Shown: piece by piece, positions 17,568-61,530 of the stretch
How positions within the stretch are numbered: the stretch's first letter is position 1
Layout of the letters: every line of letters begins with the position of its first letter
Assembly: GCA_001804285.1 (NCBI GenBank)
Contig: MHFR01000016.1
Location: forward strand, 13,975 to 77,974
Direction of reading: 5' to 3'
Origin: Candidatus Danuiimicrobium aquiferis
Lineage (GTDB): Bacteria > Omnitrophota > Omnitrophia > Omnitrophales > Danuiimicrobiaceae
Length of the DNA stretch: 64,000 bases
Notes under the pieces: generated by a model
Seen by the model: only the letters and a program-made list of their open reading frames with translations
Databases searched by the model: none
What the model was told of the DNA's origin: nothing
Position numbers and translations under genes: made by a program

Positions 17568-17709
17568 ATTAGTAATTGTCAAAGAGTTGTGATTATTACG
17601 CCATAAAAAGTGCAGAACTCAAGTTAAATGATTAATCACTATTGGTAATAAAGATATCGGATTCCTCTGGTTTTTTTAATTTCATTTACAATAAAAAAGA
17701 GTATTTCTT

Positions 17710-17816
17710 TAGCGTTTTGAAGTTGACAGGACTCCAATACCCTTCCGCCAAACAGCGCGTCGGATCCGCCTCTGACGGAAACCCTCTCCCTCAGGGAGAG
17801 GGCAGGGGTGAGGGCG
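17710..17816. repeat. Family A element (tagcgttttgaagttgac ... ccctctccctcagggagagggcaggggtgagggc)
   Basis: The same module recurs at 21186-21268 and 44351-44452. Confidence 0.6.
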
Positions 17817-17876
17817 ATTTCAGTCATTTGATATCTGATAATTTTGATACAGAAACAAATAATCCGTGAGGTTTTT

Positions 17877-21127: not shown

Positions 21128-21320
21128 GGTCACTAGTCACCGGACACTGGTTACTATGTTCTGTTGACATTTAGTGTTCTCATTCCTTCTCCCTTTTGGG
21201 GAGAAGGTTAGGATGAGGGGGAATTTCAATCCCTCACCCTATCCCTCTCCCACAGGGAGAGGGGAAAGTATGTAAATATCAGCAGAACATAGTGAATAAA
21301 TGAGAAACCAGTGACTGGTG
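21128..21320. repeat. 193-bp palindromic element with 35-bp terminal inverted repeats (ggtcactagtcaccggacactggttactatgttctg / cagaacatagtga...ccagtgactggtg) enclosing ccttctccc/gggagaagg and ccctctccc/gggagaggg hairpins
   Basis: Inverted repeats read from the sequence; lies between argB and argD. Confidence 0.7.
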
Positions 21321-21345: not shown

Positions 21346-22533
21346 ATGAAAACCAAAGAAGTTCAGGAACAATATAATCAATATGTGCTTCCGACTTACA
21401 CGCGGGTTTCGATGTGTATTGTCAAGGCAAAGGGCCTTAAGGTTTGGGATATCGAAGGGAAAGAGTATCTCGATTTTTTTTCGGGTTGGGCGGTTTCCGG
21501 ACTCGGGCACTGCCATCCGGCTGTTGTCAATGCGATTAAGAATCAGATCCGGAAAGTGATTCATATTCCAAACAATTTCTATGGTATCAAACAAGGTCAG
21601 CTTGCGGAGAAAATTATTCAGCATTCATTTCCGGGGCGTGTTTTCTTTTGCAACAGCGGAGCGGAAGCGAATGAGGGCGCGATTAAATTTGCGCGACGGT
21701 ACGGATCTCTTTCCGGGCGTTATGAAATTGTGACGATGAAAAATTCGTTTCACGGAAGAACATTGGGTGCGCTTGCCGCGACGGCACAGGAAAAATATCA
21801 AAAAGGGTTTAATCCGCTGCTTGAGGGATTTAAATATGTTCAACTGAATGATTTCGAAGCGCTCCAAAAAGTGGTATCGGATAAGACTGTTGCGATTATT
21901 TTGGAGCCGATTCAGGGCGAAGGCGGAGTGAATATTGCCGATGTCGATTATATCAAACGCCTCCGGACATTTTGTGATGACCGGAAGATACTGCTTATTT
22001 TCGATGAAGTTCAAACCGGTATGGGGCGGACGGGATATTGGTTTGCCTTTCAGCATTATGGAATAGAACCAGACTTGATGACGCTTGCGAAATCGCTTGC
22101 AAATGGCGTTCCGATCGGCGCGTTGGTGGTGAACCGGAGGATTAAAGAGGAAGTTTTAGTCGCCGGGACGCATGCGTCGACATTCGGTGGAAATCCGTTG
22201 GCAACAGCAGCAGGACTTGCGGTTTTTAAGGCGATTGAGGAGGGTGGATTGCTCACTCGCGCGAAAGAAATGGGTGAATATTTGCGGGCGGGTCTTGAGA
22301 AAATAAAACAAAAGCATCCGGCTGTCATTAAAGAAATCCGGGGGATGGGGCTGATGCTTGGCGTTGAACTGCATGTACCGGGGTCCGATATTGTGAATCG
22401 CGCGCGGGAAGCGGGTCTCCTGATTAATTGTACGCAGGACAAGGTGCTTCGGATTATTCCGGCGATGACGATTACGAAACGGCAGGCTGATCAGGGACTC
22501 GACATCTTAGATCAAGTGTTAGCATCTGTTTAG
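21346..22533 (+). CDS. argD: Acetylornithine aminotransferase
   Basis: Class-III aminotransferase with the PLP-lysine region FDEVQTGMGRTG. ATG at 21346 has a Shine-Dalgarno sequence. Confidence 0.9.
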   Translation: MKTKEVQEQYNQYVLPTYTRVSMCIVKAKGLKVWDIEGKEYLDFFSGWAVSGLGHCHPAVVNAIKNQIRKVIHIPNNFYGIKQGQLAEKIIQHSFPGRVFFCNSGAEANEGAIKFARRYGSLSGRYEIVTMKNSFHGRTLGALAATAQEKYQKGFNPLLEGFKYVQLNDFEALQKVVSDKTVAIILEPIQGEGGVNIADVDYIKRLRTFCDDRKILLIFDEVQTGMGRTGYWFAFQHYGIEPDLMTLAKSLANGVPIGALVVNRRIKEEVLVAGTHASTFGGNPLATAAGLAVFKAIEEGGLLTRAKEMGEYLRAGLEKIKQKHPAVIKEIRGMGLMLGVELHVPGSDIVNRAREAGLLINCTQDKVLRIIPAMTITKRQADQGLDILDQVLASV

Positions 22534-22540
22534 CGCTTTG

Positions 22541-22650
22541 AAGTAGCGAATACGTCAAAGTTGTGTCATACCCGCATGCAGCGAAGCAGGCATGACAAAA
22601 AAGTTGAGGTCCTTTTACGGATAAGCACTTCAAAATGCTAAATAAATGCA
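22541..22650. repeat. Family A element (tagcgctttgaagt ... cacttcaaaatgcta) with a nested family B hairpin at 22574-22607
   Basis: Terminal inverted repeats match those of the copy at 44351-44452. Confidence 0.55.
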
Positions 22651-42680: not shown

Positions 42681-44105
42681 ATGATAAATCAAAAACTCAA
42701 TATTGCATTTCTTTTGTTATTGCTTTCTTTTGCCACTTTTGTCGGTTGCGGGAAGGCGACCTATGATGAGCAAAATATCATCAAGGAAATGAAAAAAATC
42801 TGCTTGGAAGAGTATAAGGTTTCTGATGTTGAGGTGAAAATTGTCGGGAAAACAATAGGTGTTTTTCTTCCGTTAGAGCGCCTTTTTGAAAGTGATATTA
42901 AGAAGATGATTCTTTCCGGAAAAACCACTAATTTGGATTCTCTGTTTGTTCCGCTTCCGGACGCGATGGATAAATTAAATGATGTTCTTTTTACAACGGC
43001 ACGCGTTGTGCTGAGTTCGGATATCGGGCTTGAATTTTATCAGCTCTATGTCTCGGATGTTGAATCGACAGGCCTCCAGATTGTGTTGACCGGTTATATT
43101 CCGGACCTTGACCGGATGCGAATGTGGGACATTCCCCATTCAGAGTATCGAAAACGTGTGCTGCATGATTTAAAGTTGAATCGGGCGTTGCTTTGGGAGA
43201 GACCCGTTCGGAACTTATTCCGTGACGCCGGAAAAATAAGTTCTTTTGAAGCGCTGAGTGTCTATTTTTCAGAACCGCCAAAGCCATTGACTGTGTCACC
43301 TTTATTTTATAATTTTTTAACGGAAATTCAGAACAAGAAAAATTTAAAGATTGATCTCCAAACAGTCAAGGGCCGAACTTACTTTGGGAATCAAGGATTG
43401 ATTTACGTGAAGCTTGTCGAGACGTACGAACCGAAAGATGGAACGAATCCTTCGGGGATTTCTTACCCGTCCGGATCCGAGCTCGAATATATCTTTATTG
43501 TGGATATGATTGAAGAGACGTTTAAAATTACGCAAGTTATTCCGCTGTATTATTTGGATGAAAACCGGCAGCTTAAAAAAATTGCATTCCCAAAGGAGTT
43601 GGATTTATATCAGAATTTGGAATCGTGGCCGGATCATTTTGAAATTGAAGACATTAATATGGGAGAATTCATCGCGATACAACTCGCCCGTCGCATGCAG
43701 AATCTTCTGGCCGAGGATGAGCGGATTCGAAATACGATGACGATGGCTCAAGTGAATATTTCATATTTGCACCATCCGAAAGATATCGGGCCCATTCGGA
43801 AAGAACCGTATTTCAGCATTCAAATGGATTTTGAGCCAAAAAACAGCGGTGCGGGAAATGCGAAAGAATTGCCCTCGGGAACTTTTCTTGAAAACGAAGA
43901 TACGCGTTACGCGGCTGCTTTAGTGATGAAAGAATTCGTAGATGTGATCAGAAGTTACCGTTTTTCCCAATACGGTTATGTTGAGATTTTGGGACTTCAT
44001 CAGGAGTTATCAAAAAATTTTGGAATTTCTTTAGAAAATCTCGAGCTCTTCAGAAAAAAGCAGCTTAATATTAAAGAGCTTTTTGAGGCCGGTTTTAGTT
44101 TATAA
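42681..44105 (+). CDS. Lipoprotein of unknown function (474 aa)
   Basis: Signal peptide plus lipobox FVGC. Confidence 0.55.
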   Translation: MINQKLNIAFLLLLLSFATFVGCGKATYDEQNIIKEMKKICLEEYKVSDVEVKIVGKTIGVFLPLERLFESDIKKMILSGKTTNLDSLFVPLPDAMDKLNDVLFTTARVVLSSDIGLEFYQLYVSDVESTGLQIVLTGYIPDLDRMRMWDIPHSEYRKRVLHDLKLNRALLWERPVRNLFRDAGKISSFEALSVYFSEPPKPLTVSPLFYNFLTEIQNKKNLKIDLQTVKGRTYFGNQGLIYVKLVETYEPKDGTNPSGISYPSGSELEYIFIVDMIEETFKITQVIPLYYLDENRQLKKIAFPKELDLYQNLESWPDHFEIEDINMGEFIAIQLARRMQNLLAEDERIRNTMTMAQVNISYLHHPKDIGPIRKEPYFSIQMDFEPKNSGAGNAKELPSGTFLENEDTRYAAALVMKEFVDVIRSYRFSQYGYVEILGLHQELSKNFGISLENLELFRKKQLNIKELFEAGFSL

Positions 44106-44206
44106 CCTCCTTCCTGTTTAATTCCGGATATTTCTTAAACCTCCGGTTTGTAATAGCTTACATTTTCTTGAAAACCGGTTTGAATTTGTGATATCATTTA
44201 CCCTCA

Positions 44207-44336
44207 TTAGCATTCAAATGGTTAGCCCGGATTTCTCATCGTTAATAAGAAATTCCTTTGGGCGTAACTGATACGGCCCAAAGCGGCTTTCTCGTCGATT
44301 CGCAAAATCGATGAGAAAGGCGGGTTAGAGTGCTAA
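44207..44336. promoter_or_regulatory. Putative CIRCE (HrcA operator) half-sites TTAGCATTC (44207-44215) and GAGTGCTAA (44328-44336), separated by a 103-bp repeat with TTA duplicated at both junctions
   Basis: Deleting 44222-44324 plus one TTA reconstitutes TTAGCATTC-aaatggtta-GAGTGCTAA, a 9-nt spacer. The consensus is TTAGCACTC-N9-GAGTGCTAA. The site lies upstream of hrcA. Confidence 0.5.
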
Positions 44337-44488
44337 CTGGGTTGTGCCTGTTTAGCGTTTTGAAGTTGACGCGCCTCCCTCACCCTAACCCTCTCCCTGA
44401 GGGAGAGGGCAGGGGTGAGGGAGATTTGTTAATCACTTCAAAATGCTAAACTAATACACTGGGTTAGGGATGAGAAATCCGGGCTAAT
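44222..44488. repeat. Composite repeat (family C). Perfect 19-bp terminal inverted repeats ttagcccggatttctcatc / gatgagaaatccgggctaa enclose a family A element (44351-44452) and a 103-bp inner unit (44222-44324).
   Basis: Perfect reverse-complement arms at 44222-44240 and 44470-44488. Confidence 0.7.
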
Positions 44489-44514
44489 TTGATCAGGTTT
44501 TATTAGGAGAGGAA

Positions 44515-45555
44515 ATGGAAGAGCTTTCAGAAAGGCAAAAACGAATTTTAGGATCTATTGTTGAAATGTATGTTTCAACCGTCAATCCTGTGGGCTCAAA
44601 CTCGATTATTGGATTTTCCCGGGACCGGATTTCCTCCGCGACGATTCGAAATGAAATGCATGAGCTTGAGAAATTGGGTTACGTGACACATCCCCATACG
44701 TCTGCTGGGCGGATGCCGACTGATAAAGGATATCGCTACTACGTTGACTGTCTTCTTCGCGGAGTGAGATTGAATTCACGCGACGCCATGAAGATTGCGC
44801 AAGAATTTGAAGCCAATCTTTCGAGTGTTGAAAGTTTGATGGAACGAACAACAAAAATTCTTTCTACGATTTCAGAACAAGTGGGAATGGTGGTGTTTCC
44901 TTCTTTTGAAACGCTTGTCTTAAAGAAAATCGAATTAACGATACTGAGCCGTGGATATTTACTTGTTGTTTGGGTGACGCAGAACGGATTTATTCAGAAT
45001 CGCGTTGTGGATATGAAAGAAGAAATTTTGGAAGCAGAATTAGCGCGCATCTGCCATTTTTTAAATGAAGAATTGCATGGGATGCCCTTAAGCGATATTG
45101 AGTTTTATTTAACTCGTAAACTTGAAGAAGTTCACGATTCCCTTCACAAGCTTTATGAAGAAGCACGGTCGATTATTCAAAATAGTTTTCCGCGCGAAAT
45201 GCCGGGCCGGTTAAGGATTGAAGGATCTCATTATGTTTTAGAAAAGCCCGAATTCGAAAATTGGGAAAAATCGAAGCGGTTTCTTAAAATGGTTGAGGAG
45301 CGGGAATCTCTTTTAGATTTCATTCAGCAAAGCGTAAGGCCGGAACCGGGGGTTCAGGTTTATATCGGTGAAGAGCATAACTGTGAAGATATTCGAGATT
45401 GTTCGCTTGTCACGGCGCCTTATTTTGTCCGCCGCCGCGTGCTTGGCTCTGTCGCAGTTTTGGGGCCTCGTCGCATGGCCTATAACCGGATCATTTCGAT
45501 TGTCGGTTGTGTGGCTGACCGGTTGAGCAGCGAATTGGAACATTGGTCCGTGTAA
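44515..45555 (+). CDS. hrcA: Heat-inducible transcription repressor HrcA
   Basis: N-terminal wHTH RQKRILGSIVEMYVSTVNPVGS; 346 aa; followed by grpE-dnaJ. Confidence 0.9.
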   Translation: MEELSERQKRILGSIVEMYVSTVNPVGSNSIIGFSRDRISSATIRNEMHELEKLGYVTHPHTSAGRMPTDKGYRYYVDCLLRGVRLNSRDAMKIAQEFEANLSSVESLMERTTKILSTISEQVGMVVFPSFETLVLKKIELTILSRGYLLVVWVTQNGFIQNRVVDMKEEILEAELARICHFLNEELHGMPLSDIEFYLTRKLEEVHDSLHKLYEEARSIIQNSFPREMPGRLRIEGSHYVLEKPEFENWEKSKRFLKMVEERESLLDFIQQSVRPEPGVQVYIGEEHNCEDIRDCSLVTAPYFVRRRVLGSVAVLGPRRMAYNRIISIVGCVADRLSSELEHWSV

Positions 45556-45594: not shown

Positions 45595-46290
45595 ATGAAG
45601 CCGAAGGAAAAAAACGAATTTAATAAGGACGAAAAAAAGAAAAGCAGGGAGCCCATTCCACCCGAAAATTCCGGCCATGAAATTTGTGACGAGGCGGAAG
45701 AGAATAAAACGGACGGGAAGGAAGCTTCAAATGAAAAGGTTGAATTGAATCGTGAAGAATATGATCAGTTGCTGACAACCGTGAGCGAGGCGAGTCAATT
45801 GAAGGATCGCTTTTTGCGTTCAGCTGCTGATTTTGAGAATGCGAAAAAACGGCTCTTGAAGGAAAAAGAAGATTTTATTAAATACGCGCTCGAATCATTT
45901 ATTTATGAATTGCTTCCGGTCCTTGATAATTTCGAAAGGGCGGTCAACCACACGGATGAAAACGATCCCAAAACGAAAGCGCTGTACGAAGGTTTCCGCT
46001 TAATTGAAAAGCAATTCATGATGGTGCTTGCGGTTCGCGGGCTTAAACGAATTGATGCGCTGAAAAAACCATTTGATCCCAATTTACACGAAGCTGTTGG
46101 ACATGTGATTTCCGAAGCGGATCCTGAAGGGACTGTGATGGAGGAAATGGTTGCCGGTTACGAATTGAACGGACGATTGATTCGCCCGGCGAAAGTGAAA
46201 ATTTCAAAAAAAGCTGAAGCGAGTTCCGGACAAACTCGGGAAAATGATCGAATTCATTTAGAAGAGGAAAAGAAAGAAGAGCTCACCTGA
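45595..46290 (+). CDS. grpE: Nucleotide exchange factor GrpE
   Basis: GrpE coiled-coil plus C-terminal beta-domain. ATG at 45595 with an AAAGGTGA Shine-Dalgarno sequence. Confidence 0.85.
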
Positions 46291-47411
46291 TGGCTTCCGG
46301 AACGAATAAACGGGATTATTATGAGGTGCTTGGGGTGTCCCGCAGTGCTTCTCAAGACGAAATCAAAAAAGCATATCGGCAACTTGCTCTGAAATATCAT
46401 CCGGATCGTAATCATGAGGATAAACATGCGGAAACGCTTTTCAAGGAAGCAGCCGAAGCCTATGCGGTTTTAAGTGATTCTGAGAAGCGGGCCCAGTATG
46501 ATAAATATGGCCATTCACTCGGAGGTTCCGGATTTCACGGATTTCAAGGGTTTGAAAATTCGTTTACGGATTTCAGCGATGTTATTGGAGACTTGTTTGA
46601 AAATTTTTTTGGGGGGGGATCATCCCGTAGTCATGGCGGAAAGCGCGGACGACGCGGTTCGGACTTAGAATATCCCGTTGAAATTACGCTTGAGGAAGCG
46701 CAGAAAGGAAAAGAGTACCCGATTGAATTCGAACGGGCTGAAATTTGCGAGCGGTGTGCTGGATCGGGAGCGGATACGGATAGCAAAAAAATATCTTGCA
46801 AGACATGCGCGGGTTACGGGGAAGTTCGGATTTCTCAAGGTTTTTTTCAAGTCCAGCGAACATGTCCGGACTGTCACGGTGAAGGAGAAATTATTTCAAA
46901 GCCGTGCAAGGATTGTCATGGTGCCGGGCGGGCAAAAAAAACACGAAAATTAAGTTTGAAAATTCCCGCCGGAGTTGACGATGCTTCTTGTCTCAAACTC
47001 GGAGCTGAAGGAGAAGCCGGCCAAAAGGGGGGGGCTCGTGGCGACCTTTATGTTTATATTCATGTTAAGCCGCATGCCTTATTTGAGCGTTCCGGGAATG
47101 ATATTTATTTACAAATGAAAATTGAAATGCATCAGGCCGCGCTCGGAACGGAAATCGAAGTGCCGGTGCTGGATGGCAAACAGATGCTCAAGATTCCGGC
47201 TGGAACACAACCGGAACAAACATTTTGTCTCAGAGGAAAAGGAATGCCGGACTTGCGCGGTCGTAGTCTTGGAGACCAGATTGTTCGGATTAAAGTTGAG
47301 ACACCTGCTCGATTGTCCCGCGAAGAGTGTGAACTATTGGAACAATATGCAGCTTTGAGAGAAAAATCCGGAAATAAAGGGAAAAGTTTTTTTGAACGGT
47401 GGAAAAAATAG
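46290..47411 (+). CDS. dnaJ: Chaperone DnaJ
   Basis: J-domain YHPDRN, four CxxCxGxG repeats; ATGA overlap with grpE. Confidence 0.95.
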
Positions 47412-51349: not shown

Positions 51350-51553
51350 TAGCGGGCTAACCCGACTTTCTTATTCGTTTTTTGAGTCGGCGAGAAAGTC
51401 GCTTTGGGTGCAATTTATTACACCCAAAGTTTTGCGCCCTATTTGAACAAGGGCGCAAAAGATAAGCCCTGCGGCGCAGAGATATAAGCCATCTTTGCGC
51501 CGCAGCTCTGACGAGCGGAATTTCTCATTAGCGAATCGAAATCCGGGCTAACT
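51350..51553. repeat. Family C-related element: cgggctaac at both ends, enclosing four serial hairpins (gactttct/agaaagtc; ctttgggtg/cacccaaag; gcgccct/agggcgc; ctgcggcgca/tgcgccgcag)
   Basis: Palindromes read from the sequence; located upstream of gpsA. Confidence 0.6.
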
Positions 51554-51573: not shown

Positions 51574-52584
51574 ATGACAAAAAAATATAAAGTTTCAATA
51601 CTTGGCGACGGCGGTTGGGGAACGGCACTTGCCATTTTGAATGCGCGCAGAGAAAATGAAGTGATGCTTTGGAGCGCCTTTCATGATTATGTGCAGGTAC
51701 TCGAAGAAACGAGAGAAAATAAAAAGTTCCTCCCCGACGTTAAAATCCCCCCCCAAGTTCAAATGACTTCTGATATCGGAGAAGCAGTCAAATTTGCAGA
51801 TTTGGTTGTGCTTGCGATTCCATCTCTTTATTTGAGGAATGTCCTTTTTAAACTGAAAGAGTTTGATTTAAAAAATAAAGTTTTGGTTAGCGTAGCCAAG
51901 GGGATTGAGCTTAAGACACTTACGCGCCCATCTGAAATTATTCGGTCTGTCCTGGGGAATGTTGATCTGGCCGTTCTTTCAGGCCCCTCACATGCTGAAG
52001 AAGTTGCGCGTGACCTTCCAACTGTTGTTGTGGTCGGTTCGGACAACCCGAAAATTTCTCAAATCGTTCAGGAGGCATTTCGCGATACTTTCTTTCGAGT
52101 TTATGTGCAGAATGACGTTACGGGAATTGAATTGGGCGGTGTGCTTAAGAATGTGATTGCCCTCGGTGCCGGAATTTCAGACGGGTTGGGTTTTGGCGCA
52201 AATGCGAAAGCAGCGCTTTTGACGCGTGGACTTCTTGAAATGGTACGCTTGGGAGCAAAAATGGGGGCTAACCCAAATACTTTTTTTGGGCTAGCCGGAT
52301 TGGGCGATTTGATTACGACTTGTATTTCTCCATATGGAAGAAATCTTTATGTTGGGCGCGAAATCGGAAAAGGGCGAAAATTAAAAGAGATTTTAGGAAA
52401 AATGGAGATGGTGGCTGAGGGAGTTGAGACAGCGCGTTGTGCGTATGCGCTTGCTGAGAAATATCAACTTCACGCACCGATTATTACAGAAATTTATAAA
52501 ATGCTTTATGAAGATAAAGATCCGCGGCAGGCGATTGTGGATCTGATGACTCGTGAAGCGCATGAAGAGATGAAACAATATTGA
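51574..52584 (+). CDS. gpsA: NAD(P)H-dependent glycerol-3-phosphate dehydrogenase
   Basis: ILGDGGWGTALA and conserved GpsA core. Confidence 0.9.
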   Translation: MTKKYKVSILGDGGWGTALAILNARRENEVMLWSAFHDYVQVLEETRENKKFLPDVKIPPQVQMTSDIGEAVKFADLVVLAIPSLYLRNVLFKLKEFDLKNKVLVSVAKGIELKTLTRPSEIIRSVLGNVDLAVLSGPSHAEEVARDLPTVVVVGSDNPKISQIVQEAFRDTFFRVYVQNDVTGIELGGVLKNVIALGAGISDGLGFGANAKAALLTRGLLEMVRLGAKMGANPNTFFGLAGLGDLITTCISPYGRNLYVGREIGKGRKLKEILGKMEMVAEGVETARCAYALAEKYQLHAPIITEIYKMLYEDKDPRQAIVDLMTREAHEEMKQY

Positions 52585-53346: not shown

Positions 53347-54375
53347 ATGGCTCAAGCATTCCTCCACAAGCGCGGAAAAGTTTATTACGCCCGGTACAGA
53401 AACCGGAACGGAAAAGAGTGCTGGAAATCGTTTAAAACCAATTCCAAAGAAATCGCAAACGCAAAACTTGCCAAGCTCGTAGAAGCCCTCGAAAAAGATG
53501 AGCTCGGCTGGCTCAATCCAAAACCCATTTCAGAATACCTTCCCGAATATCTGGCGATCTGCGGTGCGGAACACTCCCCAAAAACACTCAGCAATGAAAA
53601 GAAAATCTTGGATGAGTTCCTCAAATTTTGCGGAGCCCAAACCTTAAATCAAATTACGGTGGATCGCGTTGAAGCGTTCAAAGTTAAACGCGTCCATAAA
53701 GTCAGCAAATCGACGGTGAACCGGGAAGTCTCGGTCATTAAAGCTTTTCTCAACCGCGCGGTGGCGCTTGGTTATCTCAACCGGCATCCGGCACAATTTG
53801 TGAAGAAATTCAAAGAAGATCAAAAACAGATTCAATTTCTTTCAGACGAAGAGATTAAGAAACTGCTTGCGGTTTGCTCTCCGAAAATGAAACAAATCGT
53901 GACGATCTTTTTGACCACCGGCATGCGCTTGGGCGAGCTGACACATCTGCGCTGGAAAGATGTCGATTTCCGCCATAAGCAGATCATCATTCAGAACCGG
54001 CCTGACTGGACGACAAAGAGCCATAAACCGCGTGTGATTCCCATGCATCCGGTAACCTTTGCGATATTGTCATCCTTACCCAAAGATTACGATTACGTCT
54101 TTCCGACAAGGGACGGCGCCACGATCGACAGTTACATCCGCCAGGAAATCGCCCGCTATGCCGATAAAGCCGGTGTCCACGCCAGCGTGAAAATGTTTCG
54201 ATCAACCTTTGCCAGCAATCTCGTCATGAGCGGCGTTGATATCTACGCCGTCTCCAAACTCCTCGGCCACCATGACGTAAAAATAACCGAAAAGCACTAT
54301 GCACACCTAACGCCAGACTTTTTAAGCCACTCCGTCCAGAGGTTAAGTTTTGAATTTGATAAGAAGAAGGGATAG
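53347..54375 (+). CDS. int: Tyrosine-type site-specific integrase
   Basis: C-terminal catalytic region ...FRSTFAS...LLGHHDVKITEKHYAHL (R..H..R..Y), N-terminal SAM-like domain, directly 3' of the tRNA. Confidence 0.9.
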   Translation: MAQAFLHKRGKVYYARYRNRNGKECWKSFKTNSKEIANAKLAKLVEALEKDELGWLNPKPISEYLPEYLAICGAEHSPKTLSNEKKILDEFLKFCGAQTLNQITVDRVEAFKVKRVHKVSKSTVNREVSVIKAFLNRAVALGYLNRHPAQFVKKFKEDQKQIQFLSDEEIKKLLAVCSPKMKQIVTIFLTTGMRLGELTHLRWKDVDFRHKQIIIQNRPDWTTKSHKPRVIPMHPVTFAILSSLPKDYDYVFPTRDGATIDSYIRQEIARYADKAGVHASVKMFRSTFASNLVMSGVDIYAVSKLLGHHDVKITEKHYAHLTPDFLSHSVQRLSFEFDKKKG

Positions 54376-54427
54376 AATATGGCGAACTTAATGCCGAAAA
54401 AAAGTAGCAGGGAGGTTAGACGTTTAT

Positions 54428-55921
54428 ATGGCATTGCCGATTAATATCGATGAATTGTTGCACGGCCGCGTGGTTGAGACCGAGCGTCTTGAATTCAAGG
54501 AGGGATGGAATCCGCAAGCTGTCCTGCATACGATGTGCGCCTTTGCCAACGATATCAACAACTGGGGTGGCGGATATATCGTGATCGGAGTCGAGGAAAA
54601 TAAGACTGGGCCGGCCTTCTCACCTAAGGGGCTGGCGCCTTCCGAGATCAAAAAAATCCAAAAAAAACTTTTAAGCCTTTCTCACAGGATCAAACCGGAA
54701 TATTTTCCGATTGTTGACGTTACAAATTACAAGGGCAAGAACATCGTCATCATCTGGGTTCCCGGTGGAACGAACCGGCCATATAAAGCCGCGGAGACAT
54801 TAGGCAAGGGCGCGCCATACGCGTATTATATTCGCCGCAACGATACGACAAAACGCGCGACGGCGTCTGATGAGCGTAGTCTAATGAAACTCGCCAACGA
54901 CATTCCTTTTGACGACCGCGTTAATTACAAGGCAACTCTAAAAGATTTGGATATTCGGCGGATTGAACAATATCTAAGCGATGTAAAAAGCGATCTCGTC
55001 CGGGAAATGTCAAAGATGCCGCTTAAGGATCTATACCGCAGGATGAATATAGTTGAGGGACAGGATGAATTGTTGAGGCCAAAGAATATCGGACTTATGC
55101 TTTTTTGTATTGATCCCCAAAAGTATTTCCCGCGCACGACCATTGATGTCGTGAAATATAAAGACGATGTCGGCGACGACTTTGATGAAAAGATTTTCGC
55201 CGGGCCTATTCATGAACAGTTGCGCGCTGCGCTTCAATATATTAAAAATTTGATGATAATCGAATATGTTCATAAGGTTGAAGGCCGGGCAGAGGCGGAG
55301 AGATTCTTTAATTATCCGTACGCGGCTATCGAGGAATCTTTGGTGAATGCGGTATACCATCGTAGTTATGAGGAACGCGAGCCGATCGAAGTGCGGATTT
55401 ATCCGGACAAGATTTATATCATTAGTTATCCGGGGCCTTTACCGCCGCTGGGCAAAGATAATATTAATGAACCGATCGTCACGCCGCGCCGGTATCGCAA
55501 CAGCCGGTTAGGCGATTCTCTGAAAGAACTTGAATTGGCGGAAGGCCGGTGTACGGGATTTCCAAAAATCCGCCGCGCGCTTAAAAATAATGGATCGCCT
55601 CCGCCAAATTTTGAGACTGATGACGACCGCACATATTTTATGGTAACTCTTAAGATTAACCCAAGAGCGAAGAAAATGGCGGCAAAAATAACTCCTGAAA
55701 TGGCTGAGAAAAATGAGGGAATAAACGAGGGATTAAATGAGGGATTAAAATCTCTCTTGAAAGTAATTAAAGAAAATCCCGGCATCAAAGCAAAAGATGT
55801 CAGCTTGCGGCTTGACGGAAGGCCGATCAAAACGATAGAACGGCAAATAACGACTCTTATCGATAGCAAATTAATAGAACGAAGAGGAAGTCGCAAGACC
55901 GGCGGGTATTTCATTAAATAG
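54428..55921 (+). CDS. AlbA_2 (Schlafen-like) + HATPase_c_4-like + C-terminal wHTH regulator, of the family annotated as 'ATP-dependent DNA helicase RecG-related transcriptional regulator'
   Basis: LEFKEGWNP...AFANDINNWGGGYIVIGVEE N-terminal motif; NAVYHRSYEEREPIEVRIYPDKIYIISYPG core; winged helix at the C-terminus. Confidence 0.7.
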   Translation: MALPINIDELLHGRVVETERLEFKEGWNPQAVLHTMCAFANDINNWGGGYIVIGVEENKTGPAFSPKGLAPSEIKKIQKKLLSLSHRIKPEYFPIVDVTNYKGKNIVIIWVPGGTNRPYKAAETLGKGAPYAYYIRRNDTTKRATASDERSLMKLANDIPFDDRVNYKATLKDLDIRRIEQYLSDVKSDLVREMSKMPLKDLYRRMNIVEGQDELLRPKNIGLMLFCIDPQKYFPRTTIDVVKYKDDVGDDFDEKIFAGPIHEQLRAALQYIKNLMIIEYVHKVEGRAEAERFFNYPYAAIEESLVNAVYHRSYEEREPIEVRIYPDKIYIISYPGPLPPLGKDNINEPIVTPRRYRNSRLGDSLKELELAEGRCTGFPKIRRALKNNGSPPPNFETDDDRTYFMVTLKINPRAKKMAAKITPEMAEKNEGINEGLNEGLKSLLKVIKENPGIKAKDVSLRLDGRPIKTIERQITTLIDSKLIERRGSRKTGGYFIK

Positions 55922-55982
55922 TATAGGGTTCAAGTCTGACACCATTTTATGGCGGAAATCATCGAAATGATGATAGGGAAAA

Positions 55983-56042
55983 AAGGTCGTAGAAAGAGTC
56001 GTAGAAAAGGTCGGAGAAAGAGTCACTGAAAAGGTCACTGAA
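55983..56042 (+). repeat. Five tandem 12-nt direct repeats (aaggtcgtagaa / agagtcgtagaa / aaggtcggagaa / agagtcactgaa / aaggtcactgaa) upstream of hsdR
   Basis: Read directly from the sequence. Confidence 0.8.
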
Positions 56043-56087
56043 AACCAAAGGCAGATTTTACTTAAAAGGAAGAAATATTATTTAATT

Positions 56088-58778
56088 ATGAGTGAAGAAA
56101 AGTGGAATGAATACAAAACGCGGAAGGAATATATCGATAAATTGCTCATTCATTCCGGCTGGAAACCCATCGTTGAATTCAAAGAAGGAAAAAATTACGT
56201 CCATGCTTCTGTAGAAGAATATCCTACGAAAACCGGTCCTTGCGACTATGCGCTCTTTTGCAAAAACCGGCCTCTGGCGGCTGTTGAGGGTAAAAAGGTT
56301 TCCGTTGGGCCGCAGAATGTACTTCAACAAGCCCAACGTTACGCGCGCGGATTTCAAGACAGCCCGTTTGCTTTTGGTGAATATCATCTGCCGTTTATTT
56401 ACTCGACCAATGGCAGAGTGGTCTGGTTTCAGGATTTGCGCCATCCGTTGAACCGGTCACGGGAAATCACTGCAATTCATACGCCTAATGCCTTGGAAGA
56501 ACTCCTATCAAGAGACGAAGAAAAAGCTAAGGCGTGGCTTCAAAGTACGTTAATCGACAATCGGTTCCTGCGCCCTTACCAAAAAGAAGCCATTTCAGCG
56601 ATCGAGCAGGCAATCATGGATCGAAAACGCAATATGCTTGTTGCGATGGCAACCGGAACCGGCAAGACCTTCACGATCATCAATTTGATTTACCGGCTGA
56701 TGAAATCCGGTCTTGCGAAGCGGATTTTGTTTTTGGTAGATCGCCGCGCTTTGGCAGCTCAAGCGGTGACAGAACTCGCAAGTTATGAAGCAGAGCCGGG
56801 CCTTAAATTTGATAAATGTTACGAAGTCTACAGCCAACGGTTCAGGCGCGAAGACCTGGATGAGAATATCAAATATGATTCTAAAGTCTTGCCCGAAGAA
56901 TACCTGACCGACCCAAAGAGCCGGGACAGTTTCGTCTACGTTTGTACCATCCAGAGAATGGGGATCAATTTATTCGGTAAGGACGGTATGTTCGGTCAAT
57001 CGACCGGCGATTTAGATGACGAATCAGATGCGGATCAGAAATTAGATATTCCCATTCATGCTTTTGATGTGGTGATCGCTGACGAATGCCACCGGGGATA
57101 TACTTCTCAGGAAGAAAGTAAATGGCGTGAAGTTTTGAAACATTTCGATGGCATCAGAATAGGACTGACCGCGACGCCCGCTGTCCACACCACCGCATTC
57201 TTTAAAGAAGTTGTTTTTCGGTATGAATATGAGCGCGCGGTCAAAGAAGGATTTCTTGTCGATTACGATGCAGTGGCGGTCAAATCCGATATTACGATTA
57301 ATGGAGTGTTTTTGAAAGAAGGCGAAGAAATCGGCCTTAGGAATACGACAACCGGCCAGCTTGTTTTTGATGTTCTCGAAGATGAACGGACGTTGGTGCC
57401 GCAAAGCAACGAAGCGGAATGGACAGCGCCGGATAGAAATAAAAAAGTTGTCAAAGAATTAAAAAAATATCTTCTCGCTCAAGAAGAATCTCTGGGGCAT
57501 TTCCCAAAAACGTTGATATTTGCTGACAACGATTTACCGCATACGTCTCATTCCGATCAGTTGGTCGACATTCTGCGGGATGAATTCAATCGGGGCGACG
57601 CCTTTGTTCAGAAGATAACCGGCAGTCCGACGGTTGACCGGCCTCTTCAGAAGATTCGGGAATTCCGAAACAGACAGAACCCCGGAATTGTCGTAACGGT
57701 TGACATGCTTTCAACCGGCGTGGACGTTCCCAAAATTGAAAATATTGTTTTTCTGCGGCCGGTTAAATCAAGAATCCTGTTCGAACAGATGATGGGGCGC
57801 GGAACACGCCTTTGCCCGGAAATTGGCAAGACGCATTTTACCGTTTTTGATTGTTTTGGCGGAACACTTTTGGAATTTTTCAGGCAAACAACCAGCATAA
57901 CCGCCGAAGCGCCGGCAAAGCCCACCAAAACGATTCGCGAAATAGTGCAGGCAATCGCCGACAATCAAAACAGGGCATACAATGTCAAAGTATTATCTAA
58001 AAGGCTTCAGCGCATCTCAAAAAATATTACCCAGGAAAGCAGGAATGAGCTTAATTATGTCGTTGGAGAGGATATTGCGGATTTTGCAATGAGTCTTGAG
58101 GAGAAACTTTCAAAGAATTGGGCCGGGACTATCAAGATTCTTCAGAGCGAAGCATTTCTTCAGTTGTGCGAAAACTACCATCGGCCCAAGCGCGAATTCA
58201 TTATCGCGGATTCTGCGGAAGACCAAGTCACGTCTGAAATGATTTTCAGGACAGCGGATGGCAAAGAGCTCAAGCCCGTTGATTATCTCAAGCTCTTTGA
58301 AGAGTTCGTCAGAAAGAATCCGGAACACATAGACGCAATCGATATCCTTCTCAATAAACCGCGTGATTTTCACACAGACGAACTCAAGGCGTTGCGAGAA
58401 AAATTGGCCACCAAGCCGGATGCTTTGATCGATAAATTCAACGAACGAAATCTGCGCAGGGCATATAATAGACAATTGGCTGATATAGTCTCGATGATCC
58501 GTCACGCTGCGAAGAACGAGGATTTATTGACGGTCGAAAGCCGTGTCGATCGCGCCATGAAAAAAATAAAAGCAAAAAGACATTTCACGGAAGCACAAGA
58601 AAAATGGCTTGAGCTGATCAGACATCATCTGGTTGCGAACTTGTTAATTGAAAAAGATGACATTGATATCCTGCCGATATTCACGCGGCAAGGCATGAAT
58701 TATTCAAATTTAAATCGGGTTTTTGACGGGAAACTGGACGAACTGTTAAAAGAGATAAATGAGGCGGTGTTAACATGA
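56088..58778 (+). CDS. hsdR: Type I restriction enzyme R subunit
   Basis: N-terminal HsdR_N (MSEEKWNEYKTRKEYIDKL), helicase motifs GTGKT and DECHRG; 896 aa. Confidence 0.9.
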   Translation: MSEEKWNEYKTRKEYIDKLLIHSGWKPIVEFKEGKNYVHASVEEYPTKTGPCDYALFCKNRPLAAVEGKKVSVGPQNVLQQAQRYARGFQDSPFAFGEYHLPFIYSTNGRVVWFQDLRHPLNRSREITAIHTPNALEELLSRDEEKAKAWLQSTLIDNRFLRPYQKEAISAIEQAIMDRKRNMLVAMATGTGKTFTIINLIYRLMKSGLAKRILFLVDRRALAAQAVTELASYEAEPGLKFDKCYEVYSQRFRREDLDENIKYDSKVLPEEYLTDPKSRDSFVYVCTIQRMGINLFGKDGMFGQSTGDLDDESDADQKLDIPIHAFDVVIADECHRGYTSQEESKWREVLKHFDGIRIGLTATPAVHTTAFFKEVVFRYEYERAVKEGFLVDYDAVAVKSDITINGVFLKEGEEIGLRNTTTGQLVFDVLEDERTLVPQSNEAEWTAPDRNKKVVKELKKYLLAQEESLGHFPKTLIFADNDLPHTSHSDQLVDILRDEFNRGDAFVQKITGSPTVDRPLQKIREFRNRQNPGIVVTVDMLSTGVDVPKIENIVFLRPVKSRILFEQMMGRGTRLCPEIGKTHFTVFDCFGGTLLEFFRQTTSITAEAPAKPTKTIREIVQAIADNQNRAYNVKVLSKRLQRISKNITQESRNELNYVVGEDIADFAMSLEEKLSKNWAGTIKILQSEAFLQLCENYHRPKREFIIADSAEDQVTSEMIFRTADGKELKPVDYLKLFEEFVRKNPEHIDAIDILLNKPRDFHTDELKALREKLATKPDALIDKFNERNLRRAYNRQLADIVSMIRHAAKNEDLLTVESRVDRAMKKIKAKRHFTEAQEKWLELIRHHLVANLLIEKDDIDILPIFTRQGMNYSNLNRVFDGKLDELLKEINEAVLT

Positions 58779-60190
58779 GTGATGTAGTCGGTAAACTGTG
58801 GGGATTTTGTCACACATTAAGGCATGACGGCGTTGATTATGGCGATTACATTGAACAACTGACCTATCTTCTTTTCCTCAAGATGGCGGATGAAAAAGGC
58901 GCCGATATTCCAAAAGAATATTCGTGGTCGGCATTGCGTGAGAAATCGGGAACCGAATTGACGGAATTTTATATCGATGCTTTGAGAGGCCTCGGAAAAC
59001 AAAAGGGAACGCTGGGCGATATTTATGCCGGAGCCATCTCAAAGTTTGCGAATCCGGTTAATCTCAAAAAGCTGATCAATCTTATCGATGAAACCGAATG
59101 GACAACTCTCAATGTAGATATCAAAGCGGCGGCTTATGAAGGACTGCTTGAGAAATCGGCGTCGGAAGGCAAAAAAGGAGCCGGTCAATATTTTACGCCG
59201 CGCATTCTGATTCAATCAATTGTGAAGTGCATGAAGCCGGATCCGCGAAAGGCAAAAGACTTTGTTATTCATGATCCTGCTGCCGGAACAGGCGGCTTTT
59301 TGGTTTGTGCTTATGAATGGCTGATGGGCGTGACAAAAGGAAGCCTTGAGCGCGACGATGCCAAGCGAATTACGAATAAAGTTTATACCGGCACTGAACT
59401 TGTCGCCCGTCCCCGGCGGCTTGCATTGATGAATTTGTATCTGCATGGCATTCATGCTGATATCTATCTTGGGGATTCGATCTACGAACCTCTGAAAAGT
59501 GCAAGATATGATTGCATACTCACCAATCCGCCTTTTGGAACGAAAGGCGCCAATCAAGCGCCGGAGCGTGGCGATTTCACGATTTCGACAAGCAATAAAC
59601 AGCTCAATTTCATTCAGCATGTCGTGAATGTTTTAAAACCCGGCGGCCGCGCCGCAATGGTTTTGCCGGATAACTGTCTCTTTGAAGACAAAGCGGGTGA
59701 AGTGCTGGAAATTTTGATGCAGGACTGCAATCTACACACGATTTTGCGTCTCCCACGCGGTACGTTTACGCCGTACAGCCAAGGCGTCAAAGCCAATGCG
59801 ATCTTTTTTCAAAAAGGCGCAGCTACCGAAAACGTTTGGATTTTTGATGCGCGCTCGAATGTCGAAGGCATTACCAAAAAAGACCGCCCGCTTTCCGAAA
59901 AACATTTTGAAGAATTTGTAAAGTGTTACGGCAATGAGCCGAACGGGCAAAGTAAGCGGACAGATTCAGGGCCCGAAGGCAGGTTTAAAAAATTCCATAT
60001 CAGCGAAATTAAAGAACGCAAGTACAAGCTCGACATTACATGGCTTAAAGACGATTCTCTTGAGGACAGTGACGAACTCCCCGAGCCGCAGGACTTAGCC
60101 AGTGAAGCCATCACCGAACTCGAAGCCGTGGTCGACAATCTCCGGGAAATTATCGATCTTGTGGAGAAAGAAGAGGGTATTGAGAAATGA
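58775..60190 (+). CDS. hsdM: Type I restriction-modification N6-adenine methyltransferase M subunit
   Basis: HsdM N-terminus, DPAAGTGGFL, LTNPPFG; ATGA overlap with hsdR. Confidence 0.93.
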   Translation: MSDVVGKLWGFCHTLRHDGVDYGDYIEQLTYLLFLKMADEKGADIPKEYSWSALREKSGTELTEFYIDALRGLGKQKGTLGDIYAGAISKFANPVNLKKLINLIDETEWTTLNVDIKAAAYEGLLEKSASEGKKGAGQYFTPRILIQSIVKCMKPDPRKAKDFVIHDPAAGTGGFLVCAYEWLMGVTKGSLERDDAKRITNKVYTGTELVARPRRLALMNLYLHGIHADIYLGDSIYEPLKSARYDCILTNPPFGTKGANQAPERGDFTISTSNKQLNFIQHVVNVLKPGGRAAMVLPDNCLFEDKAGEVLEILMQDCNLHTILRLPRGTFTPYSQGVKANAIFFQKGAATENVWIFDARSNVEGITKKDRPLSEKHFEEFVKCYGNEPNGQSKRTDSGPEGRFKKFHISEIKERKYKLDITWLKDDSLEDSDELPEPQDLASEAITELEAVVDNLREIIDLVEKEEGIEK

Positions 60191-61530
60191 ATGGCGAACT
60201 TCCGAAGGGGTGGGCATCTGCTCGAATTGGTGAGCTCTGTGATGTTCCGAAAGACAAAGGACATGAAGGCGTTGTGCCCTATTTAGAAATCGGAAATGTC
60301 GACATTAACTCAAAAGAATATACACTCACCGACAAACCTTCGGTAAAAGGGTGTCGAATCGCAAAGAAACATGACGTTTTGGTTTCGAGGGTTAGGCCAA
60401 CGCGTGGTGCAATAACTTGGATTCGCGAAGATGAGCTCGCAGTTTCATCCGCGTTTACTATGTTGCGTAACAGGGGTGCATTTACGGAAAAGTATCTTTG
60501 GCGATATCTCGCATGGAATCAAAACTATTTTGATCATTTAGGCGAGAACTGCACTGGTACGATGTATCCGACCACTTCGGATGATGCTATTATTGATTTT
60601 AAAGTTCCGATTGCTCCGCTTCCTGAACAACATCGACTTGTGGCGAAGCTCGAAGAAGTGCACAGCAAAGTCGAATCATCACAAAAGCGGATTGCGAAAA
60701 TTCCGGTTATTCTCAAACGCTTCCGTCAATCCGTCCTCGCCGCCGCCTGCTCCGGCCGCCTTACTTCTGATTGGCGAGAGAAGGATCCGATTGCTCAGAG
60801 AGAAGCCGATAGGGACGAGATTCCTTCTGGTTGGAAACCAATTTGTGTCGGTGATGTGGTTGAGAATCTTAAATACGGAACTGCGCAGAAGTGTGGGTAT
60901 GAAAAACAAGGGGTTCCTGTGTTAAGGATTCCTAACGTGGTCAACGGTTTAATCGACTGTTCTGATCTTAAATATGCCAAGCTTCCGTCCAAAGAAAGGG
61001 AACAACTCAAGCTGTATGATGGAGATATTCTTCTGATTCGTTCTAATGGAAGTGTATCATTGGTCGGGAGATGCGCGCTCGTTGAAGAAGAATACAGCGG
61101 TTTTGCCTATGCGGGTTATTTGATTCGCATTCGTCCGATTCGCGGACTTGTTGACCCCAAATTTCTGAACTTGGTTCTCGGAAGTTATGACATCCGTTTG
61201 CAAATCGAACTTGAAGCGCGTTCAACGAGTGGCGTGAATAATATCAACAGTGAAGAAGTGAGGGCTTTGCGGTTCTTACTGCCGCCATCAACCGAACAAC
61301 AAGAAATCGTCCGCCGAGTCGAATCATTATTCGCTCTGGCCGACCAAATCGAGGCCCGATTCCAAAAGGCCCAAGCGCAGGTCGACAAGCTCAGCCCGTC
61401 CATCCTCGCCAAAGCCTTCCGTGGTGAACTTGTCCCTCAAGATCCAAATGATGAACCCGCAAGCGTCTTATTACAAAAGATTAAAACAGTCAGAGAGAAA
61501 TCTGGAGGAAAACATGGCCGTACAAAATGA
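60187..61530 (+). CDS. hsdS: Type I restriction-modification specificity subunit (two target-recognition domains)
   Basis: Duplicated target-recognition-domain architecture with conserved coiled-coil ends (..LAKAFRGELVPQDPNDEPA..); ATGA overlap with hsdM. Confidence 0.88.
   Translation: MNGELPKGWASARIGELCDVPKDKGHEGVVPYLEIGNVDINSKEYTLTDKPSVKGCRIAKKHDVLVSRVRPTRGAITWIREDELAVSSAFTMLRNRGAFTEKYLWRYLAWNQNYFDHLGENCTGTMYPTTSDDAIIDFKVPIAPLPEQHRLVAKLEEVHSKVESSQKRIAKIPVILKRFRQSVLAAACSGRLTSDWREKDPIAQREADRDEIPSGWKPICVGDVVENLKYGTAQKCGYEKQGVPVLRIPNVVNGLIDCSDLKYAKLPSKEREQLKLYDGDILLIRSNGSVSLVGRCALVEEEYSGFAYAGYLIRIRPIRGLVDPKFLNLVLGSYDIRLQIELEARSTSGVNNINSEEVRALRFLLPPSTEQQEIVRRVESLFALADQIEARFQKAQAQVDKLSPSILAKAFRGELVPQDPNDEPASVLLQKIKTVREKSGGKHGRTK

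Follow-up and report, generated by a model that had tools for sequence, protein, structure and literature searches.

The CIRCE operator and its repressor HrcA exert negative control over class I heat-shock operons, such as hrcA-grpE-dnaK-dnaJ and groESL of Bacillus subtilis, and this system is widespread in bacteria. At the dnaK and groE operons of B. subtilis, an HrcA dimer contacts the two halves of CIRCE on either side of a 9-bp spacer, and in some bacteria the stem that CIRCE forms at the 5' end of the mRNA affects mRNA stability. MITE insertions that alter regulation are well known. In Neisseria, the Correia (CREE/nemis) elements insert in promoter and leader regions, e.g., at mtrCDE, and the long helices of Correia-containing transcripts are cleaved by RNase III (PMC10969869). 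The literature searched yielded no example of a repeat or a MITE splitting a CIRCE, and no description of MITEs of Omnitrophota.

In this context, we analysed a 64-kb stretch of DNA (hereafter the window) of Ca. Danuiimicrobium aquiferis, in which the region ahead of hrcA can be compared with both systems. As in CIRCE/HrcA control elsewhere, two half-sites (the left with one mismatch, the right exact) lie just after a vegetative -10 box and in front of an hrcA-grpE-dnaJ operon, and the cognate hrcA is intact; the locus differs in that the 9-bp spacer has become 112 nt, apparently through a MITE, and in that the operon lacks dnaK, as it does in the relatives. It resembles the Correia cases in that a small non-coding element, which has inverted termini and duplicates a short target, is placed between promoter and operon, and also in the predicted change in regulator access and in long RNA helices on which RNase III could act. 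However, the two belong to unrelated sequence families, their targets are TA (Correia) and TTAG (the element studied here, family A), the putative transposase families differ, and family A splits a repressor operator whereas Correia elements add a promoter or an IHF site. The features of the region are collected in Table 1.

Table 1. Features annotated in the hrcA upstream region, the operon behind it and a second repeat copy (positions of the window).
Feature	Position	Strand	Remarks
Sigma-70-type promoter, TTGAAA-N18-TATCAT	44168..44197	+	TG extension at 44189-90; conserved in relatives
CIRCE left half-site TTAGCATTC	44207..44215	+	1 mismatch to TTAGCACTC; positional homologue of the relatives' left halves
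aaatgg, first 6 bases of the original 9-nt CIRCE spacer	44216..44221	+	
TTAG, left target-site duplication copy of family A	44222..44225	+	
MITE family A, short form	44226..44324	+	99-bp body; 93.5% to family consensus
Left terminus of family A copy, CCCGGATTTCTCATCG	44226-41	+	
Hairpin H1 of family A copy	44229-56		
Hairpin H2 of family A copy	44257-83		
Hairpin H3 of family A copy	44284-44322		
Right terminus of family A copy, CGATGAGAAAGGCGGG	44309-24	+	
TTAG, right target-site duplication copy of family A	44325..44328	+	TTA, last 3 spacer bases; G, first base of the right half-site
CIRCE right half-site GAGTGCTAA	44328..44336	+	exact; sole exact occurrence in the window
ACTGGGTT, left 8-bp duplication copy of family B	44336..44343	+	repeated at 44458-65
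MITE family B	44344..44457	+	114 bp; termini GTGCCTGTTTAGCGTTTTGAAGT and ACTTCAAAATGCTAAACTAATAC
Family C, G+C-rich hairpin repeat	44375-44423		nested in family B; other copies at 17782-17820 and 21199-21263
ACTGGGTT, right 8-bp duplication copy of family B	44458..44465	+	
A-prime, solo inverted family A left end	44464..44487	-	24 nt; TTAG CCCGGATTTCTCATCC CTAA on the - strand
Ribosome-binding site AGGAGAGG	44503..44510	+	ahead of hrcA ATG at 44515
hrcA	44515..45555	+	intact, 346 aa; Pfam HrcA C-terminal domain 8.8e-54, HrcA DNA-binding domain 1.2e-5
grpE	45586/45595-46290	+	Pfam-confirmed
dnaJ	46290-47411	+	Pfam-confirmed
Second family A copy	51357..51552	-	full-length, diverged; 84.5% to consensus; TTAG/TTAG flanks

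The promoter is the sole promoter-like site on the plus strand within 44000-44600, its end lies 9 nt from the left half-site, and transcription is predicted to start near 44204. No terminator-like site was found in the leader region, and no promoter-like site inside the family A unit. A search for groES, groEL, dnaK and further CIRCE sites that covered the window, about 150 kb of contigs from the species and 8 kb past the end of the window found none. In this Omnitrophota lineage (the window together with L007-L011 and L147-L149) the CIRCE-controlled operon is hrcA-grpE-dnaJ without dnaK, and in most relatives a zinc-ribbon gene and one for a 4HBT thioesterase come after dnaJ. Far from this operon, positions 42-12464 of the window are occupied by a single giant ORF of 4140 aa.

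Judged from its sequence, the split site is a disrupted, former CIRCE. It consists of inverted 9-bp half-sites of the type TTAGCACTC / GAGTGCTAA, with a vegetative promoter on one side, a class I heat-shock operon on the other and hrcA in the genome, and the intervening unit opens with TTAGCCCGGATTTCTCATCG at 44222 and closes with CGATGAGAAAGGCGGG at 44324; the exactly 9-bp spacer of CIRCE is present only after in-silico excision of 44222-44324, which yields TTAGCATTC-aaatggTTA-GAGTGCTAA. An earlier note on this DNA had claimed such a restoration, together with the hrcA-grpE-dnaJ gene order, and its coordinates for the half-sites and the unit proved exact on re-reading, while the three genes were borne out by Pfam. 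It had also allowed for an overlooked intact CIRCE elsewhere upstream of hrcA; none was found there, and no CIRCE with up to four mismatches occurs in the entire window. The half-site pair upstream of hrcA is far from chance: GAGTGCTAA is expected 0.33 times in 64 kb and was observed once, 44207/44328 is the only left/right pair (at most one mismatch each) within 500 nt, and chance would put an exact half-site into the correct register with a probability of about 5e-6, or both halves jointly into one fixed register that restores the 9-nt spacer with about 4.5e-10.

Comparison with the hrcA upstream region of related genomes, which the earlier note had proposed as a check, pointed the same way. 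In six distinct syntenic Omnitrophota relatives (HrcA 43-55% identical; 43-56% among the nearest HrcA relatives overall), an FtsH-like gene and a gene of unknown kind encoding about 470-490 aa precede hrcA-grpE-dnaJ, as they do in the window, and the intergenic length is 91-279 bp, vs. 409 bp in the window. At the equivalent position all six carry an intact CIRCE, which has 1-3 mismatches and a spacer of nine bases, follows the -10 box directly and lies 7-30 nt ahead of the hrcA start codon, and in three of them (L007, L009 and L010) it is preceded by the architecture CTTGAA(A/C)-N17/18-TAnnAT. The operators of L007 and L010 read CTAGCGCTC-taatccTTA-GAGTGCTAA and CTAGCGCTC-taatcaTTA-GAGTGCTAA, respectively; both share with the window the 12-mer junction TTAGAGTGCTAA, and both have a single TTAG at the orthologous site (ccTTAGAGTGCTAA, caTTAGAGTGCTAA). 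The former existence of an ancestral CIRCE ahead of hrcA in the window is well supported, because CIRCE is intact there in six relatives and TTAGAGTGCTAA is shared with two of them.

The unit between the half-sites belongs to a repeat family, here named family A. A metagenome scan with TTAGCCCGGATTTC-N(9-17)-GAAATTCC returned 18 loci, 16 of them with the repeat and at least 13 distinct after deduplication; four proteins flanking the copies were identical to proteins of the window's species. Copies are 82-196 bp long, non-coding and 84-98% identical to the consensus, and all are intergenic, in unrelated flanks and in both orientations relative to the neighbouring genes. Full-length elements are about 194 bp and form a chain of six hairpins; the copy at hrcA lacks model positions 36-121, and a copy in contig L134 has the same short form. 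TTAG precedes all 15 left ends examined, including copies found without that constraint, and the right flank is TTAG in most copies and TTAA in three. Family A is thus small, dispersed and multi-copy, with terminal inverted repeats and a target-site duplication, i.e., it has the features by which MITEs are recognized.

In this light, the mobile repeat postulated by the earlier note is real, with at least 13 same-species copies in unrelated intergenic flanks and both orientations, and its imperfect terminal inverted repeats were found again (termini of the hrcA copy complementary at 14/16 positions). A direct flanking duplication exists as it had proposed, although its extent is TTAG (44222-25 and 44325-28) and not TTA. 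A relative with the same segment and no CIRCE halves, which the note had named as speaking against its reading, was not met with in the sense intended; family A copies elsewhere do lack CIRCE halves, and hence the halves are not part of the repeat.

Further observations concern individual copies. The second copy in the window lies in an intergenic region between divergent genes; 22 nt separate its end from the downstream gpsA-like ORF (51574-52584), whose promoter it may affect. Two contigs (L136 7447-7640 and L142 808-1001) have an identical family A copy and right flank with differing left flanks, a pattern that points either to copies having recombined or to chimeric assembly across the repeat. 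Moreover, the TAG of the flanking TTAG ends the upstream ORFs at L134 1387-1390 and L136 7447-7450; the target tetranucleotide thus overlaps stop codons, and insertions sit flush with gene ends. We saw no sign of a dedicated RNA function for family A in these alignments, since covariation was negligible (term +0.47, double changes in 5/66 pairs) and neither the leader nor full-length copies matched Rfam, where searches returned sub-threshold miRNA-like hairpins and one tRNA elsewhere.

Genome contigs (596 Gb) were scanned with the 14-mer TTAGCCCGGATTTC, too short a pattern for that amount of sequence. None of the 117 matches listed was a family A copy, and at least 35 of those listed extend to TTAG followed by CCCGGATTTCTCAC, with variable sequence before TTAG, in many phyla. 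Three of these loci (L109, at 5612-7350, L124 and L061) are complete elements of about 1.74 kb, bounded as TTAG-CCCGGATTTCTCAC...GAGAAATCCGGG-TTAG, which encode an IS1380-family transposase of 472-484 aa (PF13701 8.6e-161; NF033539 413.7 bits). The ends of family A, CCCGGATTTCTCA...GAGAAAGNCGGG, and its TTAG flanks match these complete elements from other phyla, sharing 13/14 left-terminal and 10/12 right-terminal bases; termini and duplication are thus common to family A and to transposase-encoding elements. Like these, family A has termini that start with CCC and end with GGG (CCCGGATTTCTCA / GAGAAA..CGGG) and a 4-bp TTAG duplication, and it differs in its length of 99-194 bp, in encoding no transposase and in a right terminus that departs from the IS consensus at 2/12 positions. 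By its termini and duplication, which it shares with complete IS1380 elements, family A is a MITE of IS1380 type. No tblastn match to the IS1380 transposase was found in the window and the same-species contigs (about 230 kb).

The sub-terminal hairpins and the three TTAA right ends had prompted an IS200/IS605-type model, in which nothing is duplicated, the left flank is the target TTAG and the right one a TTAR that belongs to the element; it was dropped in view of the complete IS1380 elements, which have these ends and lie between two TTAG copies. The IS1380 subgroup with invariant ends is represented by at least 35 loci among those listed (L012-L128), including Acidobacteriota, Verrucomicrobiota, Myxococcota, Planctomycetota and Cyanobacteria, and many copies of this TTAG-targeting subgroup are isolated ends beside ordinary genes, as would be expected if derived MITEs or solo ends were numerous. 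Among 135 IS1380-type ends, one doubtful match with one mismatch was found beside a CIRCE half. The eukaryotic piggyBac elements have a TTAA target and CCC...GGG ends, a suggestive parallel to the TTAG-targeting IS1380 ends. The transposases of IS1380, a prokaryotic family, serve as outgroup to piggyBac (PMC10813416).

The arrangement recurs in independent data. The window and the NCBI MAG 'Omnitrophica bacterium RIFCSPLOWO2_12_FULL_44_17' (GCA_001804245.1, Ca. Danuiimicrobium aquiferis) encode HrcA proteins that are 100% identical, and 16 contigs from ENA, JGI, NCBI and Logan assemblies encode an identical HrcA. In three independent assemblies that span it, the 409-bp upstream region is identical, except for one SNP at 44247 in one of them, and three other contigs start at 44331 or 44409, i.e., within the repeats. 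Assemblers typically break contigs at repeated DNA, and the contigs with identical HrcA either contain the insertion or break in it. Since independent assemblies agree, the split operator is not an assembly artefact. Same-species assemblies do differ in another part of the window, at about 54200-61530 (L150 vs. L152 4000-10000), where a Type I restriction-modification locus (hsdR/M/S) and the adjoining SLFN/AlbA_2-HATPase gene vary; one assembly has an intact hsdR of 896 aa and a gene of 497 aa, and in the other these are split or replaced (390+523 aa; 361+162 aa).

The leader also holds a larger nested repeat structure at 44336-44487, which the earlier note had not mentioned. Within it, family B has termini of the GTTTAGCGTTTTGAAGT type, variable cargo and 8-bp target duplications, and other copies were found in the window (22526-22642 and 17708-17727), in L133 (9646-9935) and in L141 (5875-6040), the last also with an 8-bp flanking repeat, AACCACAT. 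Family C (CCCTCACCCTAACCCTCTCCCT / AGGGAGAGGGCAGGGGTGAGGG) occurs alone or nested within other repeats, with further copies in L131 (10597-10634) and L136 (983-1027). A-prime, the only solo family A terminus found in about 230 kb of this species examined, forms with 44222-45 a 24-nt inverted repeat, 92% complementary, with MITE B and the right half of CIRCE between its arms. On its outer side A-prime is flanked by CTAA (44484-87), the tetranucleotide with which the right CIRCE half closes as well (44333-36), and excision of 44337-44487 leaves 27 nt between CIRCE and the ATG, inside the 7-30 nt of the relatives. These matches suggest that the TTAG on the minus strand of CIRCE was hit a second time, but the other end of the 44337-44487 segment is without a recognisable terminus. 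Such a second insertion at the right-half TTAG, an inversion by intramolecular transposition and a deletion remnant are the candidate origins of A-prime.

The boundaries of the insert could be drawn otherwise, as a single stretch of 266 bp delimited by 44222-45 and 44464-87, in which GAGTGCTAA would be internal cargo; the outer inverted repeat is indeed better than the termini of the 103-bp unit themselves. We consider this highly improbable, given that the outer flanks, TTAG and CTAA, are reverse complements and not a direct duplication, whereas the 103-bp unit is flanked by TTAG on both sides like other family members. Moreover, no GAGTGCTAA follows 44487, TTAGAGTGCTAA recurs in the orthologous operators of L007 and L010, an exact half-site would have had to fall in register by chance (about 5e-6, as above), and the interior is made up of separate elements, each with its own duplication. 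It is barely credible that the 103-bp unit is a dedicated cis-regulatory RNA (thermometer or riboswitch), or that the arrangement reflects chance or misassembly. The unit is predicted to fold very stably (z = -7.0), but no Rfam family matches it, its termini and duplication are of IS1380 type, and copies adjoin unrelated genes in both orientations, which we count as already refuting such a role; against chance or artefact stand the agreement of independent assemblies and the joint probability given above.

Other readings accept the insertion and let the operator keep a function. On DNA, extrusion of a cruciform or multi-arm structure, or looping of the 103 bp, could bring TTAGCATTC-aaatgg and tta-GAGTGCTAA together again, so that repression would depend on supercoiling or temperature. 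Complementary termini (14/16), strong internal hairpins, a length of about 9.8 helical turns that nearly preserves helical phase, and the intact hrcA and promoter are compatible with this. Nevertheless, we regard it as quite unlikely: one small dimer would have to hold a protein-free loop of 103 bp closed, at a high energetic cost, complementarity between the two ends is confined to the 16-nt termini and the interior forms local hairpins of its own, the remaining family A copies have no adjoining half-sites and thus give no hint of adaptation to such a role, and no precedent was found in the literature searched. At the RNA level, the half-sites could pair as an extension of the terminal stem of the MITE and keep a 5' stem, which may alternate with the helix 44222-45/44464-87 in a two-state leader. 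Folding of the extremely structured leader (about 311 nt if transcription starts as predicted; -161 kcal/mol, z = -11.9; several helices of 17-24 bp) does predict two mutually exclusive states, with the nine half-site pairs at a probability of 0.85-0.98 in transcripts that end before 44464, and at 0 in the full leader, where the helix 44222-45/44464-87 reaches about 1.0. The re-apposition by the hairpin that the earlier note had offered as an alternative is thus predicted for the short transcripts and abolished in the full leader by the 24-bp helix. A retained RNA role nonetheless appears unlikely to us, because these are thermodynamic predictions alone and any palindromic insert in the loop of a palindrome would look the same, A-prime and MITE B resemble unrelated insertion debris, covariation in the family is about 0 (with double changes as few as stated above), and the arrangement occurs in no relative. 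A conditional operator, re-apposed either by a cruciform or in nascent RNA before the A-prime strand is made, is decidedly unlikely in our view; if it existed, repression of hrcA-grpE-dnaJ or the fate of its mRNA would depend on supercoiling, temperature or transcription kinetics, and a mobile element would have turned a simple operator into a structural switch.

We return to the reading in which a family A MITE inserted within a former CIRCE, which we hold to be almost certain as far as the structure of the locus is concerned. The insertion event is inferred from distant orthologues (nearest HrcA about 55%) and from the behaviour of the family. On this reading, the element entered at a TTAG made up of the last three spacer bases and the first base of the right half-site, and duplicated it. 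The copy is the 99-bp internal-deletion form of an element of about 194 bp that is multi-copy in the genome, and its arrival moved the half-sites from 9 to 112 nt apart and left the adjoining promoter untouched. Later or independent events placed MITE B, with family C nested in it, and the solo family A terminus between CIRCE and the ATG, and thereby lengthened the 5' leader from about 60 nt to some 310 nt.

The split site would no longer be a high-affinity HrcA operator, because the HrcA dimer spans a 9-bp spacer, and transcription of hrcA-grpE-dnaJ from the conserved promoter would escape HrcA autorepression. Taken by itself, the predicted loss of HrcA autoregulation at the hrcA promoter is somewhat likely; the account as a whole, in which an IS1380-type MITE split CIRCE and the operon would thereby escape autorepression, is likely to be the best explanation. 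Remaining control would be post-transcriptional, through the stable leader, e.g., by processing with a double-strand-specific RNase. Since hrcA is intact, operons at other places in the genome that bear a CIRCE are presumably still repressed by HrcA.

In brief, the analysis defines a new MITE family, family A, tied to a TTAG-targeting IS1380 subgroup. The finding is useful for annotation and as a test of the spacing requirement of HrcA, rather than as a conceptual advance. The CIRCE consensus (TTAGCACTC...GAGTGCTAA) contains the TTAG target on both strands, so that heat-shock operators would be built-in landing sites for such elements. The locus offers a clean natural case in which a transposon-derived repeat appears to have halved a deeply conserved repressor site with promoter and repressor gene intact, and it leads to the prediction that hrcA-grpE-dnaJ has escaped autoregulation in an uncultivated candidate-phylum bacterium of groundwater.
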